DNA from: Eledone cirrhosa
Taxonomy: Eukaryota
DNA length: 64,000 nucleotides
Direction: 5' to 3'
Assembly (NCBI GenBank): GCA_964016885.1
Contig: OZ024743.1
Span: 299,708,001-299,772,000, forward strand
Position numbers and translations under genes: made by a program. Numbering within the stretch: position 1 is the stretch's first letter; every line of letters begins with the position of its first letter. Under the pieces are notes generated by a model that saw only the letters and a program-made list of their open reading frames with translations, did not search any database and was not told the DNA's origin. This document shows, piece after piece, positions 7,157 to 45,600 of this stretch.

Positions 7157-9012
7157 ACCCTAAGGCCTTCTTTAAATTTGCAAAAGAAACTGCCTCAGTA
7201 CACTGCAAGATTGGACCACTCTTCCACACGGACGGTTCATTAACCGAAAATCCCCAAGAGATATGTGAAATACTGAACGAACAGTACAAAAGTGTCTTCA
7301 CATGTCCACTGAGGCACATGCAAATAACGAAGCCAAAGGGGTTCTTTGATGCCACAACACTACATCAAGAAATGGCAACCATCAACCACATAGACATAAC
7401 GGAGGAGGATGTGGTGTACGCCATTGATGAAATTAGAACAGACTCGGCTGCTGGACCTGATGGATTCCCAGCAATTCTCCTAAAAATATGTAAGCGGGCC
7501 TTAGCAACCCCACTGAAGATGCTCTTCAGAAGCTCCTTGGCTAGCGGTGTACTACCCAGGGAGCTGAAAGAAGGCACAATATGCCCTATCCATAAAGGAG
7601 GTAGTAGAGCGGAGGCCAAGAAATATAGGCCAGTCTCCCTGACGTCGCATATCAGTAAGGTCATGGAGCGAGTCGTCAGAAAGAAACTAATCACTTTCCT
7701 CGAAGAAAATGACCGCCTGACTAGCACGCAACATGGCTTCCGCCCAGGAAGAAGCTGCCTTACACAGCTGCTACATCACTACGACTGGGTACTGAGACAA
7801 CTACTAGACAGCTCACATGTGGACGTGATATATCTTGACTTTGCGAAGGCCTTTGACAAGGTCGACCACGGAATGATATGTCACAAACTACACGGACTCG
7901 GCATAACTGGAAAAGTAGGTGAGTGGCTGCATGGCTTCCTAAGGGACAGAAGCCAGGCAGTCGCAGCAAATGGGGCCCTCTCAAAGGAAACACCAATAAC
8001 AAGTGAGGTGTCCCAGGGGACAGTCCTGGGACCACTACTGTTTTTGGTGGCTCTCTCGGACATGCCCTCTGTGGTGCATGCAACAACATCCCTCACTAGC
8101 TATGCTGATGACACTAAGGTAGCACAGGCAATCAAAAACCCGGCTGACGCTGCCCTTTTACAGCAGGATCTGGATGCCATATACAGATGGGCGGAAGAAA
8201 ACAACATGCAGTTTAATGCTGGCAAATTCCAAGCCCTACAATACAAACCTGCAAACACAAATATAGTGGAACACAGTTACACAGGACCAGGAGAGACCGA
8301 TATCCCCGTGTCAAAATCGATACGAGACCTGGGCATAGACATGAGCGATGATGCATCTTTTTCTTCACACATCATGAAGGTGGCGACAGCATGTAGACGA
8401 TTCGCTGGCTGGATCTTGAGGACTTTCCTTACAAGAGATCGAGACACCATGTTGACACTGTGGAGGACTTCTGTCCTAAGCCGCCTGGACTACTGCTCCC
8501 AGCTGTGGTCACCCCATAGTGTCAAACTAACCACGGAGCTTGAGGCAATCCAGCGAAGCTACACCAAGAGTATTGCCAAGATGAGGGAGACAAGCTACTG
8601 GGAGAGGCTGAAGGAACTGAACCTCTACTCCTTGGAGCGAAGACGGGAGAGATACGCAGTGATCTACATGTGGAAAATCCTGGAGGGACTAGCACCAGAC
8701 TTTGGCATTGGGAGCTGGACCAACCGTCGAACAGGACGTCACTGTGTGGTGCCAAAGGTCCCGTCTTCCACATCTAGAATAAGGAGAAGGTATTGCAATA
8801 GCCTGGGATTCAAGGGCCCTCAACTCTTCAACAGGCTGCCGAGGCATCTGAGAGACTTGCATGACGCGGAGGTGGATGTCTTTAAGAAACATCTCGACAC
8901 CTTGTTATACAGGATCCCGGATGAGCCCACAGCAAGACATGAGGGAAACCTAAGGGCAGCAGCAACAAACTCCCTCCTACACCCGTGGCCAACCTATACA
9001 GGCTGGAGATAA
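7156..9012 (+). CDS. LINE ORF2 reverse transcriptase domain and C-terminus (APE endonuclease lost by truncation)
   Basis: AAGPDG, YRPVSLTS, QHGFRPGRSC, YLDFAKAFDKVDH, VSQGTVLGPLLF, YADD, RDLG, LDYCSQLWSP, LYSLERRR. Confidence 0.9.
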
Positions 9013-9086: not shown

Positions 9087-10750
<1,664 letters not shown>

Positions 10751-11265
10751 TGAGAATAGGATGGCTGTGTAGTTGCTAGATAGGTTAGGCTTAATAATGG
10801 AATGAGAATAAGAATAAAGCCAGAACGGGGCAGGGGGGTGTTCCTCATCAGTTGTCTACTGTCGATCTCGGATATTTCAACGCTTTAAAGACACTATATC
10901 TACCACAAAGCGTTCAATAACTGGGTAAGTTATTGGGAAAACGGATGAGGGAGAGAAGGAAAATAGAGGGGAAAAGAGGAAGAACAGAGAAAACAGTGAA
11001 AACAACAACAAACCGAAGAATGTGCAAGAAACTGAAGGCAAGAGACTCCAAGACCACAGCAGTAACAGAGCTTAAGTTCAAGAGCGTGTGATCGAACGAA
11101 AAACACGTCTGACCCAAGCCTGTGTAAGTGAGAAAAGGACTGCTAGAAGGTAGAAGGTCAGGCGAGGGAAACAATGAAGTGACAGGCAGAGGAAGAGTAG
11201 ATAGTAACGAAATAGGTAGGTAGAAGGAGAGAGAAGACGGGTCACAGCGATATATATATGTATTA
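10751..11265 (-). mobile_element. Solo ~500-bp monomer structurally related to the 495-bp satellite unit (putative retrozyme)
   Basis: Same HHR-like motif with identical spacing, a purine-rich + strand, a similar end (CAGYG...ATATATGTATTA), and TA-rich flanks. Confidence 0.55.
10841..10939 (-). ncRNA. Putative non-canonical (scrambled-order) hammerhead-like RNA
   Basis: Minus strand: TTCC CAATAAC..GTTATTG AACGCTTT gtggt AGATAT-A-GTGTCT tt AAAGCGTT GAA-ATATC..AGACAA-CTGATGA-GGAA. Confidence 0.55.
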
Positions 11266-17040: not shown

Positions 17041-17671
<631 letters not shown>

Positions 17672-17966
17672 TAAAAACAAATAACGAAACGAAATTAAAT
17701 TTCGTTTCGTTTGTAACTCACTTTTGTATGACTGACGCTTAAACAATTAAGTTAAAGATGTACATCCATATATGTATACTGAAATACTAGTATGTATATG
17801 AATACACACACGTATACATATGTAGGTGTACCAAGTTTTTTCACTGGTCACTTTACTGTGAGTGGCCAGCTATTCTGTATGTAAACACACAGACAAACCG
17901 GTTTTTAGAGTCATACTGGTTTTTGAGGAAACACCTCTCCTCTATTCTCCAGAAAGCCAGACAAGG

Positions 17967-18011
17967 AATATTGAACTAGTTTCGTTGTTGTTACAACTCA
18001 TCAGCAATATT
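17967..18011 (-). ncRNA. Minimal type I HHR (also at 18434, 18901, 19368 [stem III variant], 19835)
   Basis: AATATTG-CTGATGA-GTTGT aaca ACAAC-GAAAC-TA-GTT-CAATATT. Confidence 0.88.
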
Positions 18012-20342
18012 TACCCATCTTCCGGCCTCTCTAGAGAATCGTAAAAGCACATATCGTTATATGCTTTTTCTATGAAAATTAGTAGTGGGCAGACTAATTT
18101 GCATAGAGTGTGAGTAAGTACCGGTTCAACGGAGACGATAAAAACAAATAACGAAACGAAATTAAATTTCGTTTCGTTTGTAACTCACTTTTGTATGACT
18201 GACGCTTAAACAATTAAGTTAAAGATGTACATCCATATATGTATACTGAAATACTAGTATGTATATGAATACACACACGTATACATATGTAGGTGTACCA
18301 AGTTTTTTCACTGGTCACTTTACTGTGAGTGGCCAGCTATTCTGTATGTAAACACACAGACAAACCGGTTTTTAGAGTCATACTGGTTTTTGAGGAAACA
18401 CCTCTCCTCTATTCTCCAGAAAGCCAGACAAGGAATATTGAACTAGTTTCGTTGTTGTTACAACTCATCAGCAATATTTACCCATCTTCCGGCCTCTCTA
18501 GAGAATCGTAAAAGCACATATCGTTATATGCTTTTTCTATGAAAATTAGTAGTGGGCAGACTAATTTGCATAGAGTGTGAGTAAGTACCGGTTCAACGGA
18601 GACGATAAAAACAAATAACGAAACGAAATTAAATTTCGTTTCGTTTGTAACTCACTTTTGTATGACTGACGCTTAAACAATTAAGTTAAAGATGTACATC
18701 CATATATGTATACTGAAATACTAGTATGTATATGAATACACACACGTATACATATGTAGGTGTACCAAGTTTTTTCACTGGTCACTTTACTGTGAGTGGC
18801 CAGCTATTCTGTATGTAAACACACAGACAAACCGGTTTTTAGAGTCATACTGGTTTTTGAGGAAACACCTCTCCTCTATTCTCCAGAAAGCCAGACAAGG
18901 AATATTGAACTAGTTTCGTTGTTGTTACAACTCATCAGCAATATTTACCCATCTTCCGGCCTCTCTAGAGAATCGTAAAAGCACATATCGTTATATGCTT
19001 TTTCTATGAAAATTAGTAGTGGGCAGACTAATTTGCATAGAGTGTGAGTAAGTACCGGTTCAACGGAGACGATAAAAACAAATAACGAAACGAAATTAAA
19101 TTTCGTTTCGTTTGTAACTCACTTTTGTATGACTGACGCTTAAACAATTAAGTTAAAGATGTACATCCATATATGTATACTGAAATACTAGTATGTATAT
19201 GAATACACACACGTATACATATGTAGGTGTACCAAGTTTTTTCACTGGTCACTTTACTGTGAGTGGCCAGCTATTCTGTATGTAAACACACAGACAAACC
19301 GGTTTTTAGAGTCATACTGGTTTTTGAGGAAACACCTCTCCTCTATTCTCCAGAAAGCCAGACAAGGAATATTGAACTATTTTCGTTGTTGTTACAACTC
19401 ATCAGCAATATTTACCCATCTTCCGGCCTCTCTAGAGAATCGTAAAAGCACATATCGTTATATGCTTTTTCTATGAAAATTAGTAGTGGGCAGACTAATT
19501 TGCATAGAGTGTGAGTAAGTACCGGTTCAACGGAGACGATAAAAACAAATAACGAAACGAAATTAAATTTCGTTTCGTTTGTAACTCACTTTTGTATGAC
19601 TGACGCTTAAACAATTAAGTTAAAGATGTACATCCATATATGTATACTGAAATACTAGTATGTATATGAATACACACACGTATACATATGTAGGTGTACC
19701 AAGTTTTTTCACTGGTCACTTTACTGTGAGTGGCCAGCTATTCTGTATGTAAACACACAGACAAACCGGTTTTTAGAGTCATACTGGTTTTTGAGGAAAC
19801 ACCTCTCCTCTATTCTCCAGAAAGCCAGACAAGGAATATTGAACTAGTTTCGTTGTTGTTACAACTCATCAGCAATATTTACCCATCTTCCGGCCTCTCT
19901 AGAGAATCGTAAAAGCACATATCGTTATATGCTTTTTCTATGAAAATTAGTAGTGGGCAGACTAATTTGCATAGAGTGTGAGTAAGTACCGGTTCAACGG
20001 AGACGATAAAAACAAATAACGAAACGAAATTAAATTTCGTTTCGTTTGTAACTCACTTTTGTATGACTGACGCTTAAACAATTAAGTTAAAGATGTACAT
20101 CCATATATGTATACTGTATGGATGTACATCTTTAACTTAATTGTTTAAGCGTCAGTCATACAAAAGTGAGTTACAAACGAAACGAAATTTAATTTCGTTT
20201 CGTTATTTGTTTTTATCGTCTCCGTTGAACCGGTACTTACTCACACTCTATGCAAATTAGTCTGCCCACTACTAATTTTCATAGAAAAAGCATATAACGA
20301 TATGTGCTTTTACGATTCTCTAGAGAGGCCGGAAGATGGGTA

Positions 20343-20387
20343 AATATTGCTGATGAGTTGTAACAACAACGAAACTAGTTCAATATT
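20343..20387 (+). ncRNA. Minimal type I HHR (second plus-strand copy at 20810-20854)
   Basis: Same motif on the + strand after the inversion point. Confidence 0.88.
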
Positions 20388-21076
20388 CCTTGTCTGGCTT
20401 TCTGGAGAATAGAGGAGAGGTGTTTCCTCAAAAACCAGTATGACTCTAAAAACCGGTTTGTCTGTGTGTTTACATACAGAATAGCTGGCCACTCACAGTA
20501 AAGTGACCAGTGAAAAAACTTGGTACACCTACATATGTATACGTGTGTGTATTCATATACATACTAGTATTTCAGTATACATATATGGATGTACATCTTT
20601 AACTTAATTGTTTAAGCGTCAGTCATACAAAAGTGAGTTACAAACGAAACGAAATTTAATTTCGTTTCGTTATTTGTTTTTATCGTCTCCGTTGAACCGG
20701 TACTTACTCACACTCTATGCAAATTAGTCTGCCCACTACTAATTTTCATAGAAAAAGCATATAACGATATGTGCTTTTACGATTCTCTAGAGAGGCCGGA
20801 AGATGGGTAAATATTGCTGATGAGTTGTAACAACAACGAAACTAGTTCAATATTCCTTGTCTGGCTTTCTGGAGAATAGAGGAGAGGTGTTTCCTCAAAA
20901 ACCAGTATGACTCTAAAAACCGGTTTGTCTGTGTGTTTACATACAGAATAGCTGGCCACTCACAGTAAAGTGACCAGTGAAAAAACTTGGTACACCTACA
21001 TATGTATACGTGTGTGTATTCATATACATACTAGTATTTCAGTATACATATATGGATGTACATCTTTAACTTAATT

Positions 21077-42685: not shown

Positions 42686-45600
42686 TATTAAAATATAGAG
42701 AAAAATACTGCAGGTAGCACATGGTAACATGTAATAAAATACGTCCCTCATCAGTGATTTGCCGAAGATCATAGATATTTCATTGCATTAAAAATCATAT
42801 ATCTCACTTCGGTGCAATAATAACCAAAATAAGTTATTAGGACAATTAAAACGCGTAAAGCGAGTGAGACAGGAGAACAACAGAAAATATAGCATACCGT
42901 GGGAGAGAAACAAGCTTCAAAAATTATTCTGTTAGCGTAAGCTAGGTGAATATATGAGCGCTTAGAGAATAGTGCCAGCACGAACGAAGGCCATTGAGCA
43001 GAGAGAGAAAAAATAGCGTCCGTGAGTGCAGGATGAAATGAAGAGAAGAGGGAGAAAAACAGTGAGTGAGTGAAAGTGTGAGGAAGAGTTAACGGACAAG
43101 ACAGAGGGGGAGAAACAGAGAGAATGGGGGAACAGTAAGAGAGAGAGAAAAAAACACTGAATCGCAGTGGTAAATATATGTATTAAAATATAGAGAAAAA
43201 TACTGCAGGTAGCACATGGTAACATGTAATAAAATACGTCCCTCATCAGTGATTTGCCGAAGATCATAGATATTTCATTGCAATAAAAATCATATATCTC
43301 ACTTCGGTGCAATAATAACCAAAATAAGTTATTAGGACAATTAAAACGCGTAAAGCGAGTGAGACAGGAGAACAACAGAAAATATAGCATACCGTGGAAG
43401 AGTAACAAGCTTCAAAAATTATTCTGTTAGCGTAAGCTAGGTGAATATATGAGCGCTTAGAGAATAGTGCCAGCACGAACGAAGGCCATTGAGCAGAGAG
43501 AGAAAAAATAGCGTCCGTGAGTGCAGGATGAAATGAAGAGAAGAGGGAGGAAAACAGTGAGTGAGTGAAAGTGTGAGGAAGAGTTAACGGACAAGACAGA
43601 GGGGAAGAAACAGAGAGAATGGGGGAACAGTAAGAGAGAGAGAAAAAAACACAGAATCGCAGTGGTAAATATATGTATTAAAATATAGAGAAAAATACTG
43701 CAGGTAGCACATGGTAACATGTAATAAAATACGTCCCTCATCAGTGATTTGCCGAAGATCATAGATATTTCATTGCATTAAAAATCATATATCTCACTTC
43801 GGTGCAATAATAACCAAAATAAGTTATTAGGACAATTAAAACGCGTAAAGCGAGTGAGACAGGAGAACAACAGAAAATATAGCATACCGTGGGAGAGAAA
43901 CAAGCTTCAAAAATTATTCTGTTAGCGTAAGCTAGGTGAATATATGAGCGCTTAGAGAATAGTGCCAGCACAAACGAAGGCCATTGAGCAGAGAGAGAAA
44001 AAATAGCGTCCGTGAGTGCAGGATGAAATGAAGAGAAGAGGGAGAAAAACAGTGAGTGAGTGAAAGTGTGAGGAAGAGTTAACGGACAAGACAGAGGGGG
44101 AGAAACAGAGAGAATGGGGGAACAGTAAGAGAGAGAGAAAAAAACACAGAATCGCAGTGGTGAATATATGTATTAAAATATAGAGAAAAATACTGCAGGT
44201 AGCACATGGTAACATGTAATAAAATACGTCCCTCATCAGTGATTTGCCGAAGATCATAGATATTTCATTGCATTAAAAATCATATATCTCACTTCGGTGC
44301 AATAATAACCAAAATAAGTTATTAGGACAATTAAAACGCGTAAAGCGAGTGAGACAGGAGAACAACAGAAAATATAGCATACCGTGGGAGAGAAACAAGC
44401 TTCAAAAATTATTCTGTTAGCGTAAGCTAGGTGAATATATGAGCGCTTAGAGAATAGTGCCAGCACGAACGAAGGCCATTGAGCAGAGAGAGAAAAAAAT
44501 AGCGTCCGTGAGTGCAGGATGAAATGAAGAGAAGAGGGAGAAAAAAAGTGAGTGAGTGAAAGTGTGAGGAAGAGTTAACGGACAAGACAGAGGGGGGGAA
44601 ACAGAGAGAATGGGGAACAGTAAGAGAGAGAGAAAAAAAAACAGAATCGCAGTGGTAAATATATGTATTAAAATATAGAGAAAAATACTGCAGGTAGCAC
44701 ATGGTAACATGTAATAAAATACGTCCCTCATCAGTGATTTGCCGAAGATCATAGATATTTCATTGCATTAAAAATCATATATCTCACTTCGGTGCAATAA
44801 TAACCAAAATAAGTTATTAGGACAATTAAAACGCGTAAAGCGAGTGAGACAGGAGAACAACAGAAAATATAGCATACCGTGGGAGAGAAACAAGCTTCAA
44901 AAATTATTCTGTTAGCGTAAGCTAGGTGAATATATGAGCGCTTAGAGAATAGTGTCAGCACGAATGAAGGCCATTGAGCAGAGAGAGAAAAAATAGCGTC
45001 CGTGAGTGCAGGATGAAATGAAGAGAAGAGGGAGAAAAACAGTGAGTGAGTGAAAGTGTGAGGAAGAGTTAACGGACAAGACAGAGGGGAAGAAACAGAG
45101 AGAATGGGGGAACAGTAAGAGAGAGAGAAAAAAACACAGAATCGCAGTGGTAAATATATGTATTAAAATATAAAGAAAAATACTGCAGGTAGCACATGGT
45201 AACATGTAATAAAATACGTCCCCCATCAGTGATTTGCCGAAGATCATAGATATTTCATTGCATTAAAAATCATATATCTCACTTCGGTGCAATAATAACC
45301 AAAATAAGTTATTAGGACAATTAAAACGCGTAAAGCGAGTGAGACAGGAGAACAACAGAAAATATAGCATACCGTGGGAGAGAAACAAGCTTCAAAAATT
45401 ATTCTGTTAGCGTAAGCTAGGTGAATATATGAGCGCTTAGAGAATAGTGCCAGCACGAACGAAGGCCATTGAGCAGAGAGAGAAAAAATAGCGTCCGTGA
45501 GTGCAGGATGAAATGAAGAGAAGAGGGAGAAAAACAGTGAGTGAGTGAAAGTGTGAGGAAGAGTTAACGGACAAGACAGAGGGGGAGAAACAGAGAGAAT

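Follow-up and report, generated by a model that had tools for sequence, protein, structure and literature searches.

A predicted S-G-C hammerhead variant with a divided stem II in retrozyme-like repeats of Eledone cirrhosa

The closest described relatives of the motif reported here are the hammerhead ribozymes of type SGC (HRIMA-1 and the SGC variants; Eckert et al. 2023, PMC10085705), which share with it the S-G-C order of the core blocks, a full core, stems I and III, and a short linker, beginning with UU, that leads from stem I into the strand preceding GAAA. In the parts of that paper drawn on here, these ribozymes have a direct stem II of 4-5 bp with G10.1-C11.1 and a 3' tail that pairs just 5' of stem I, and they cleave at 0.007-0.19 per minute without protein. 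They come from metatranscriptomes, with none given there from genomes of known organisms. The discoverers assumed CUGANGA and its stem II to be inseparable, and a match to their descriptors must contain CGAAA, CUGAUGA(U)G and additional stem II pairs. Our motifs do not fit these descriptors and were therefore missed in that search. A stem II of a single pair is known from a hammerhead that also has a pseudoknot and whose cleavage rate exceeds 1.2 per minute (Perreault et al. 2011, PMC3088659). It resembles the present motif in that a neighbouring helix props the one pair but, as described in the part used, it is permuted circularly (type II), has a single pseudoknot and lacks a four-way junction or kink.

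Animal retrozymes are defined by tandem non-coding units with one hammerhead each, and in the parts of the two reports used here the non-LTR retrozymes are defined by type I hammerheads and type I descriptors (Cervera and de la Pena 2020, PMC7229834; Li et al. 2026, 10.64898/2026.07.22.740005). The integration marks of Penelope-like elements are target sites in (TA)n and insertions in the form of partial tandems or inverted pieces; the Naiads, which encode GIY-YIG and a reverse transcriptase (RT), are described in the portion consulted as having no canonical hammerhead, with 10 'core' and 8 'half core' cases outside the descriptors (Craig et al. 2021, PMC8557442). Among the open papers within our scope (subscription papers and bioRxiv supplements lay outside it), we found no SGC hammerhead in an animal genome, no split stem II and no permuted hammerheads in Naiads; the part of PMC13725137 that touches on the subject mentions only the existence of other variants.

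Layout of the motif in a solo and a satellite copy

We regard the motif examined here as an architecturally new form of the hammerhead that is borne by a large superfamily of retrozyme-like repeats. It lies on the minus strand of the window, the 64,000-nt stretch of the E. cirrhosa genome that was analysed, in a solo element and in a tandem satellite array. The features are as follows, with the parts of the solo motif in 5' to 3' order:

42676-64000, minus: family-A tandem array, 43 units of 495 bp, first motif at 42739-42848
9087-10750, no strand: (TA)n microsatellite at the 3' end of the solo element, the likely insertion target
10749-11250, minus: solo family-B element, about one full monomer turn, predicted ribozyme junction internal
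10765-10776, minus: shared 3' motif GYAACHACRCAG, in most cases 12-45 nt upstream of the (TA)n junction
10840-10941, minus: permuted (S-G-C) hammerhead motif with four-way junction, probably an impaired copy
10936-10941, minus: helix a, 5' strand; its partner is 10844-10840, the strand after CUGAUGA
10915-10935, minus: hairpin arm of 7 bp, part of the four-way junction
10909-10914, minus: helix b, 5' strand; its partner is the strand before GAAA; putative stem II surrogate
10901-10908, minus: helix c, 5' strand, and non-bulged strand of the kink-turn; G-G mismatch, one base shorter than in family-B copies
10889-10900, minus: block S, comprising the stem III 5' strand, U16.1, A17 (10895) and a stem I strand
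Between 10895 and 10894, minus: predicted cut within block S; the G at 10894 mismatches A2.1
10879-10888, minus: UUAA linker, helix b 3' strand and nucleotide 11.1
10871-10878, minus: block G, GAAA and the stem III 3' strand
10859-10870, minus: 3-nt bulge, G1b and A2b (kink-turn type), helix c 3' strand
10845-10857, minus: block C, stem I strand and CUGAUGA

Read from 10941 to 10840, the solo motif opens with a short strand, the 7-bp hairpin, two more strands and AGAUAUA, continues with a stem I strand, UUAA and a strand ending in GAAAUAUC, and closes with the stem I strand that carries CUGAUGA, followed by GGAAC. Hairpin, AGAUAUA, GAAAUAUC and CUGAUGAG follow one another in the same order on the minus strand of the satellite. 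By hammerhead numbering the blocks stand in the order S, G, C, which is the type SGC of Eckert et al. (2023), and all three are intact in 38 of the 43 array units. The identical spacing claimed in the sequence-only reading, made before this analysis, was borne out: in both copies we measured 21 nt from the 3' end of the hairpin to the cleavage A, 17 from that A to G12, and 27 from G12 to C3 (25 when counted, as it was there, from the last A of GAA), and the hairpin loop differs by one base (7 in the solo copy against 8). BLAST of the solo element against the satellite returned no similarity at an E value of 0.001, and the common features therefore form an island within diverged sequence.

That reading had also listed helices altered on both strands between the copies. 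The changes in stem I, in the closing helix and in the hairpin-closing pair (C-G against U-A) are all present, but when families A and B are compared the closing helix is displaced by one base with respect to A9. The helix before GAAA likewise exists and has changed on both strands, but its homologous part measures 5-6 bp and not the proposed 8; the longer version was rejected as copy-specific, its extra UU occurring in 2 of 34 family-B copies and its AA being part of the conserved UUAA linker. Helix c, which covaries, and the kink-turn-type loop were absent from the earlier account.

The solo element belongs to family B, and its best relatives are only 82-86% identical, from which it follows that family B is old. 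It starts about 14 nt past the AU-rich end point of other copies and finishes at that point; it is permuted relative to the cleavage site and has a deletion of ~50 nt near its 5' end. The G-A mismatch that had been noticed next to the cleavage site is real and rare, position 1.1 being G in 2 of 49 family-B-like copies and U in the other 47. Helix c has suffered a one-base deletion and a G-G mismatch. The minimum-energy fold of the solo copy loses c and III, and that of an intact family-B copy recovers a, the hairpin, c and III. The earlier suspicion that this copy is inactive gains support from the rare lesions, the G1.1 mismatch and the damaged helix c, and we regard it as probably an impaired member of its family.

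Rfam gave no match at the gathering score anywhere in the window and none up to an E value of 10 over the solo element; in six loci it returned only sub-threshold microsatellite and other unrelated matches.

Pairing, covariation and the divided stem II

The two strands that would make up stem II pair instead with the upstream strand, the one after A9 in helix a and the one before G12 in helix b. The hairpin, placed between the upstream strands of a and b, completes a four-way junction, and stem III continues through an internal loop into the 6-bp helix c. We scored these pairings in 23 hand-picked natural copies that covered the subfamilies then known. Pairing held in 94.6% of 781 cells, 18 of 34 pairs change on both sides, and the covariation score was reached by 0 of 500 shuffles, with slid controls at 29-49%. 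Stem I was paired in 98.6% and stem III in 100% of cells; helix a reached only 79% in the 23-copy alignment A2, a consequence of its one-base change of register from family to family, and half-compensated variants of helix c exist (3 of 23 rows at one pair). Because relatedness inflates covariation counts, events were also counted on a tree, which gave at least 20 changes from one Watson-Crick pair to another at 15 of 29 pairs, helix a excluded. Compensatory change thus keeps the pairings across many subfamilies, as expected if the fold is under selection, which the sequence-only reading had proposed.

Of 50 newly retrieved loci (L401-L450), 49 were searched with a model that held only a, the hairpin, c and III (L402 was left out since it overlaps L401); this yielded 53 matches, truncated and fold-back copies included. 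Although stem I, helix b and the 10.1-11.1 pair all lie outside this search model, they continue to covary and were paired in 93.9%, 80.7% and 72.5% of cells, against 28-49% for slid controls. Dropping the 17 lower-scoring rows leaves the best 36 of the 53, to which the following core counts refer: G12 is kept in 34, A13 in 36, A14 in 36, A15.1 in 35 and U16.1 in 34; position 17 is A in 22 and C in 14 but never G; and the core is nearly invariant, with N7 varying (U in 30, C in 4, A in 2). Conservation of the C block is partly circular, because the search pattern selected this block in many copies. The linker from stem I to the stem II strand has four bases, of which positions 2-4 are U, A and A in all of the best 36; in D1 it reads UUCA.

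A direct stem II of at least two pairs, as a hammerhead would have it, was not found. Over four pairs it is paired in 34.8% of cells, and among the best 36 of 53 its first pair forms in 29 of 36 copies and pairs 2-4 in 8 of 108 cells. In these best 36, positions 10.1 and 11.1 form A-U 13 times and U-A 11 times; their pair fails in 14 of 51 new matches and is absent in B2/B3 copies with A at 11.1, and helix b lacks its fifth pair in 23 of 50 cells of the new matches. Helix a, by contrast with the published type-SGC arrangement, joins the 3' tail to the far 5' strand (135 of 144 cells in the best 36 of 53), and the segment 5' of stem I is engaged in helix c. Published type SGC is marked by a direct stem II and by a helix that joins the 3' tail to the segment lying 5' of stem I, and neither was present: stem II has 0-1 bp, its strands pair with an upstream strand around the hairpin, and stem III is extended through a kink, unlike the type-SGC ribozymes in the sections of PMC10085705 used here.

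Fifteen copies of the D families, which have a GUC site and wholly different helices, are paired in 94.9% of 390 cells of a, the hairpin, b, III and I. Their 10.1 covaries within helix a (U-A in 9, A-U in 5) and their 11.1 pairs in b, which leaves stem II without any pair; a 2-bp GG/CC register of stem II is possible by eye, in competition with helices a and b.

Stem III and helix c are separated by a loop in which G and A come after a 3-nt bulge and face GA; at the level of sequence this is the standard kink-turn consensus. In the best 36 of 53 new matches, G1b is found in 36, A2b in 35, A1n in 33, G2n in 28 (with U in 7) and U at L3 in 31. Most families have this consensus, family C with box C/D-like U-U and G-C neighbours, and in the D families a plain bulge takes its place. 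Family B1 has U at 2n, which we take to be a Kt-23-like exception. The standard kink-turn, as set out in the part of Huang and Lilley (2016, PMC5061560) relied on, shares the 3-nt bulge and the G-A and A-G pairs, followed by an adjoining Watson-Crick helix; here the element lies inside stem III of a predicted ribozyme.

A structure filter passes 157 of 215 pattern matches from the E. cirrhosa genome, 0 of 90 from viral contigs and 0 of 122 from metagenomes (about one eighth of the metagenome collection scanned). Energy folding alone recovers a, the hairpin, c and III in family-A copies and in the intact family-B copy, with modest z-scores for the motif (-0.9 to -3.2). Helix c or a is missing from 4 of 9 minimum-energy folds, those of the solo copy and of one copy each from C, D and E. 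Circular folding of whole monomers, with 12 shuffles each, is unremarkable in A, B, C and F (z from -0.6 to -1.9) and strong in D (z about -4).

In X1 and X2, contigs of unrecorded kind over positions 42700-43800 of the window, both sides of two helix-c pairs vary at similar shares (90% and 84%; 37% and 49% in X1), matching compensatory subfamilies of the genome. In all three data sets of this type the depth fits DNA of a multicopy repeat, and a single contig from an organism B carries no weight.

Repeats that carry the motif

Across the 3.0-Gb genome, the pattern proposed in the sequence-only reading matched 1,134 times, against a single match in the reversed control, which rules out a chance motif as that reading had argued. 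The CUGACGA form gave 647 matches (23 in the control) and the form with a GUC site 744 (2 in the control). CUGANGA followed by the shared 3' motif was found 6,714 times against 4, and with a longer gap 1,203 times against 0. Together with 1,801 plus 769 matches to the family-A core pattern, with which they overlap little, the CUGANGA/3'-motif patterns sum to ~10,400 pattern matches; among the CUGANGA/3'-motif matches listed, family sequence was seen by eye upstream in 30 of 30 loci.

These copies form many non-coding families with monomers of 488-804 nt (spacing 495-515 in A, 488-529 in C, 632 in F, 753-804 in D and about 530-575 in B). The longest ATG frame in six monomers spans 148 aa, with nothing recognisable encoded, and a Pfam search of 60 of the 93 long frames in motif loci returned only LINE, DDE or host domains. 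Upstream of the motif, copies run into the previous monomer and not into an open reading frame (ORF). The placement of the hits, which had been put forward as a check, proved to be in tandem or solo non-coding repeats, rarely near Penelope-like coding sequence. Of the postulated family of ~500-nt mobile RNAs, the non-coding mobile repeats, tandem and solo, stand; their size extends over 488-804 nt, and that they are RNAs bearing a ribozyme is what we infer.

Terminal copies end at (TA)n at a family-specific distance past the ribozyme motif, mostly 48-72 nt in A, 56-86 in C, F and G, 81-117 in B and 83-113 in D. The 12-nt 3' motif precedes this end in sense orientation in 95 of 172 copies and in antisense in none, and (TA)4 lies within 70 nt after it in 90 of 118 copies, compared with 143 of 780 random windows. 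An inverted adjacent piece was found in 15 of 94 loci. Inserted copies retain the uncut junction, 120-170 nt from the 3' end. Insertions start from a fixed position downstream of the junction and extend across it, which makes a ligated circle or multimer their probable template.

The repeats resemble non-LTR retrozymes in being non-coding units of a few hundred bases, each with one (here predicted) hammerhead, found as anything from monomers to long arrays and with a GC content below about 46%. They differ in the order of their hammerhead, which is permuted to S-G-C where the retrozymes are defined by type I, and in their greater length (PMC7229834; 10.64898/2026.07.22.740005, in the parts used). 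With Naiads, as the portion of PMC8557442 used describes these, they have in common the (TA)n targets, the partial tandem and inverted insertions and, by eye, the fold of a, hairpin and b with S-G-C order, near the 3' end of several consensus records; Naiads encode GIY-YIG and an RT, whereas nothing recognisable is encoded here.

Six loci (L113, L126, L407, L423, L428 and L430) hold fold-back copies with the inversion breakpoint inside the motif, often between stem III and GAAA.

Naiads and the origin of the repeats

The Naiad supplement of PMC8557442 was searched for occurrences of the C block, and the pairings in those passages were worked out by eye, with nothing computed; this covered 61 of 62 occurrences of CTGATGA, 22 of 23 of CTGACGA, 15 of 43 of CTGAAGA and 15 of 25 of CTGAGGA, and matches broken by a line end were missed. 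Nine passages show, by eye, the full fold of a, hairpin, b, c, III and I in S-G-C order. Three of them are near-identical Acropora records with a UUAA-led linker and two are Octopus records with the kink-turn, the names being taken from the following header and the metadata order; the other four can be located only by where they stand in the file, one in part 9 (Clytia region), two in part 12 (Morbakka region) and one in part 19. A tenth, in part 8, has only two stem I pairs. In the consensus records the fold lies near the 3' end, and in some records a plain bulge replaces the kink-turn. Some passages of the arthropod region have S-G-C order with other peripheral pairings, and most other C-block matches in the parts of the supplement covered are coding sequence or the authors' canonical hammerheads.

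Six further passages, in parts 13-16 and including three Nippostrongylus records, are by eye of type CSG with a normal stem II, a type represented by only two sequences in the part of Eckert et al. (PMC10085705) used here. If nematode Naiads do use CSG, non-circular permutations would be common in animals and overlooked through search descriptors.

We consider it likely, from the sequence evidence, that the motif, with its hammerhead core in S-G-C order, its stem II of at most one pair and its four-way junction, is a self-cleaving ribozyme of retrozyme-like elements, and that these release monomers which are circularised and copied into (TA)n by a Penelope-like RT. Helix b would stack on the core as a surrogate for stem II, and the UUAA linker would close, with helix c, a further three-way junction by which stems I and b are held together. 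The kink-turn, or the plain bulge of other families, would bend stem III back, so that helix c could reach the outer ends of stems I and b. Cleavage after the NUH triplet would free monomers, which could then be ligated to circles, and target-primed rolling reverse transcription would set out from a site 120-170 nt downstream of the junction. The elements may descend from Naiad-type 3' ends. With less assurance, we lean towards the view that the motif is the missing ribozyme of Naiads, ancient and active from cnidarians to cephalopods and amplified here to about ten thousand copies; this would offer a possible answer to the puzzle that Naiads seemingly lack the hammerhead borne by other Penelope-like elements. 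Non-circularly permuted hammerheads have hitherto come only from environmental sequences. Here the CUGANGA/stem II block is itself split, and covariation is drawn from many independently amplified families in one animal genome. The fold is also a directly testable ribozyme design with a putative built-in protein-binding motif, and its abundance indicates that retrozyme surveys limited to type I miss abundant families.

Other explanations have to account for the same observations. The fold could be real without being self-sufficient, needing either an L7Ae/Snu13-class kink-turn binder or the element's own RT, or serving as a ligase or switch that keeps circles closed. The kink-turn consensus in most families (with the box C/D-like neighbours of family C), the weak stem II and the uncut junction that inserted copies keep 120-170 nt from the 3' end all speak for this. 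We nevertheless judge it improbable: the D families and some Naiad records have a plain bulge instead, so that kink-turn binding is not essential, and published SGC ribozymes cleave without protein, according to the part of PMC10085705 used. A shade less probable still is an origin of the repeats as 5'-truncated 3' ends (pLTR pieces) of an autonomous Penelope-like element, expanded as DNA satellites with no RNA circle stage of their own. Such pieces would be at odds with the previous monomer, rather than an ORF, upstream of the motif, with Penelope-like protein similarity within about 1.5 kb in only 4 of 190 motif loci, and with the many separate subfamilies that have spread with their own monomers; they would agree with the by-eye position of the fold near the 3' end of the Naiad consensus records consulted, with the partial tandems and the inverted pieces in 15 of 94 loci, and with long homogeneous arrays such as the 43-mer, which may grow by DNA recombination.

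To a chance arrangement, or to two decayed canonical hammerheads, we give almost no credence, even though AT-rich sequence pairs easily and no Rfam family matches, given 1,134 matches against 1 in the control and 6,714 against 4, covarying stems that link all three blocks, and the absence of a direct stem II. The idea of decayed hammerheads is refuted because stems I and III, which covary across families, tie the three blocks together, and pairs 2-4 of a direct stem II occur in only 8 of 108 cells.

The preferred reading, a retrozyme-like element copied by a Penelope-like RT, can be set beside the Penelope-like elements of this genome, which are abundant. A young family in (TA)n has an intact frame of 938 aa and, by its linker cysteines, appears to be Neptune-like; its members (L381:4309-7122 on the minus strand, L382, L386, L389, L390 and L392) encode RT and GIY-YIG, with 93-99% protein identity between copies, and no CUGANGA lies within 2.2 kb downstream of the stop codon in L381 or L389. 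Other Penelope-like families (L384, L394 and L391) have canonical minimal type I hammerhead-like motifs downstream of the ORF, 350-410 nt beyond the stop codon. The N-terminal GIY-YIG of Naiads was seen in none of 62 GIY-YIG loci examined, and no Naiad-type ORF (N-terminal GIY-YIG and C-terminal RT) was found in the monomers or beside the motif loci. On the autonomous elements examined, neither the motif nor the 3' motif was seen. Five motif copies lie within 50 GIY-YIG loci, and in the two inspected (TA)n lies between the copy and the element with the ORF. Two short patterns based on the motif of the octopus Naiad gave 2 and 4 matches, with no Naiad ORF beside those inspected. One of the four motif loci with nearby Penelope-like protein similarity was inspected and has it on the opposite strand. 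At L412:236-1394 (minus strand), a diverged fragment of Penelope-like RT and endonuclease abuts the motif head to head, without a (TA)n spacer.

Elsewhere in the window, at 17671-21076, a separate 467-bp tandem array sits in (TA)n and is inverted at about 20109. Its units carry a type I (C-G-S) hammerhead, unreported by Rfam, whose stem II has 4 bp and whose stem III is short and palindromic; we presume it to be like the minimal forms that act as dimers. On the plus strand at about 7160-9010, a fragment of LINE-type reverse transcriptase, recognised by eye, lies between (TA)n arrays.
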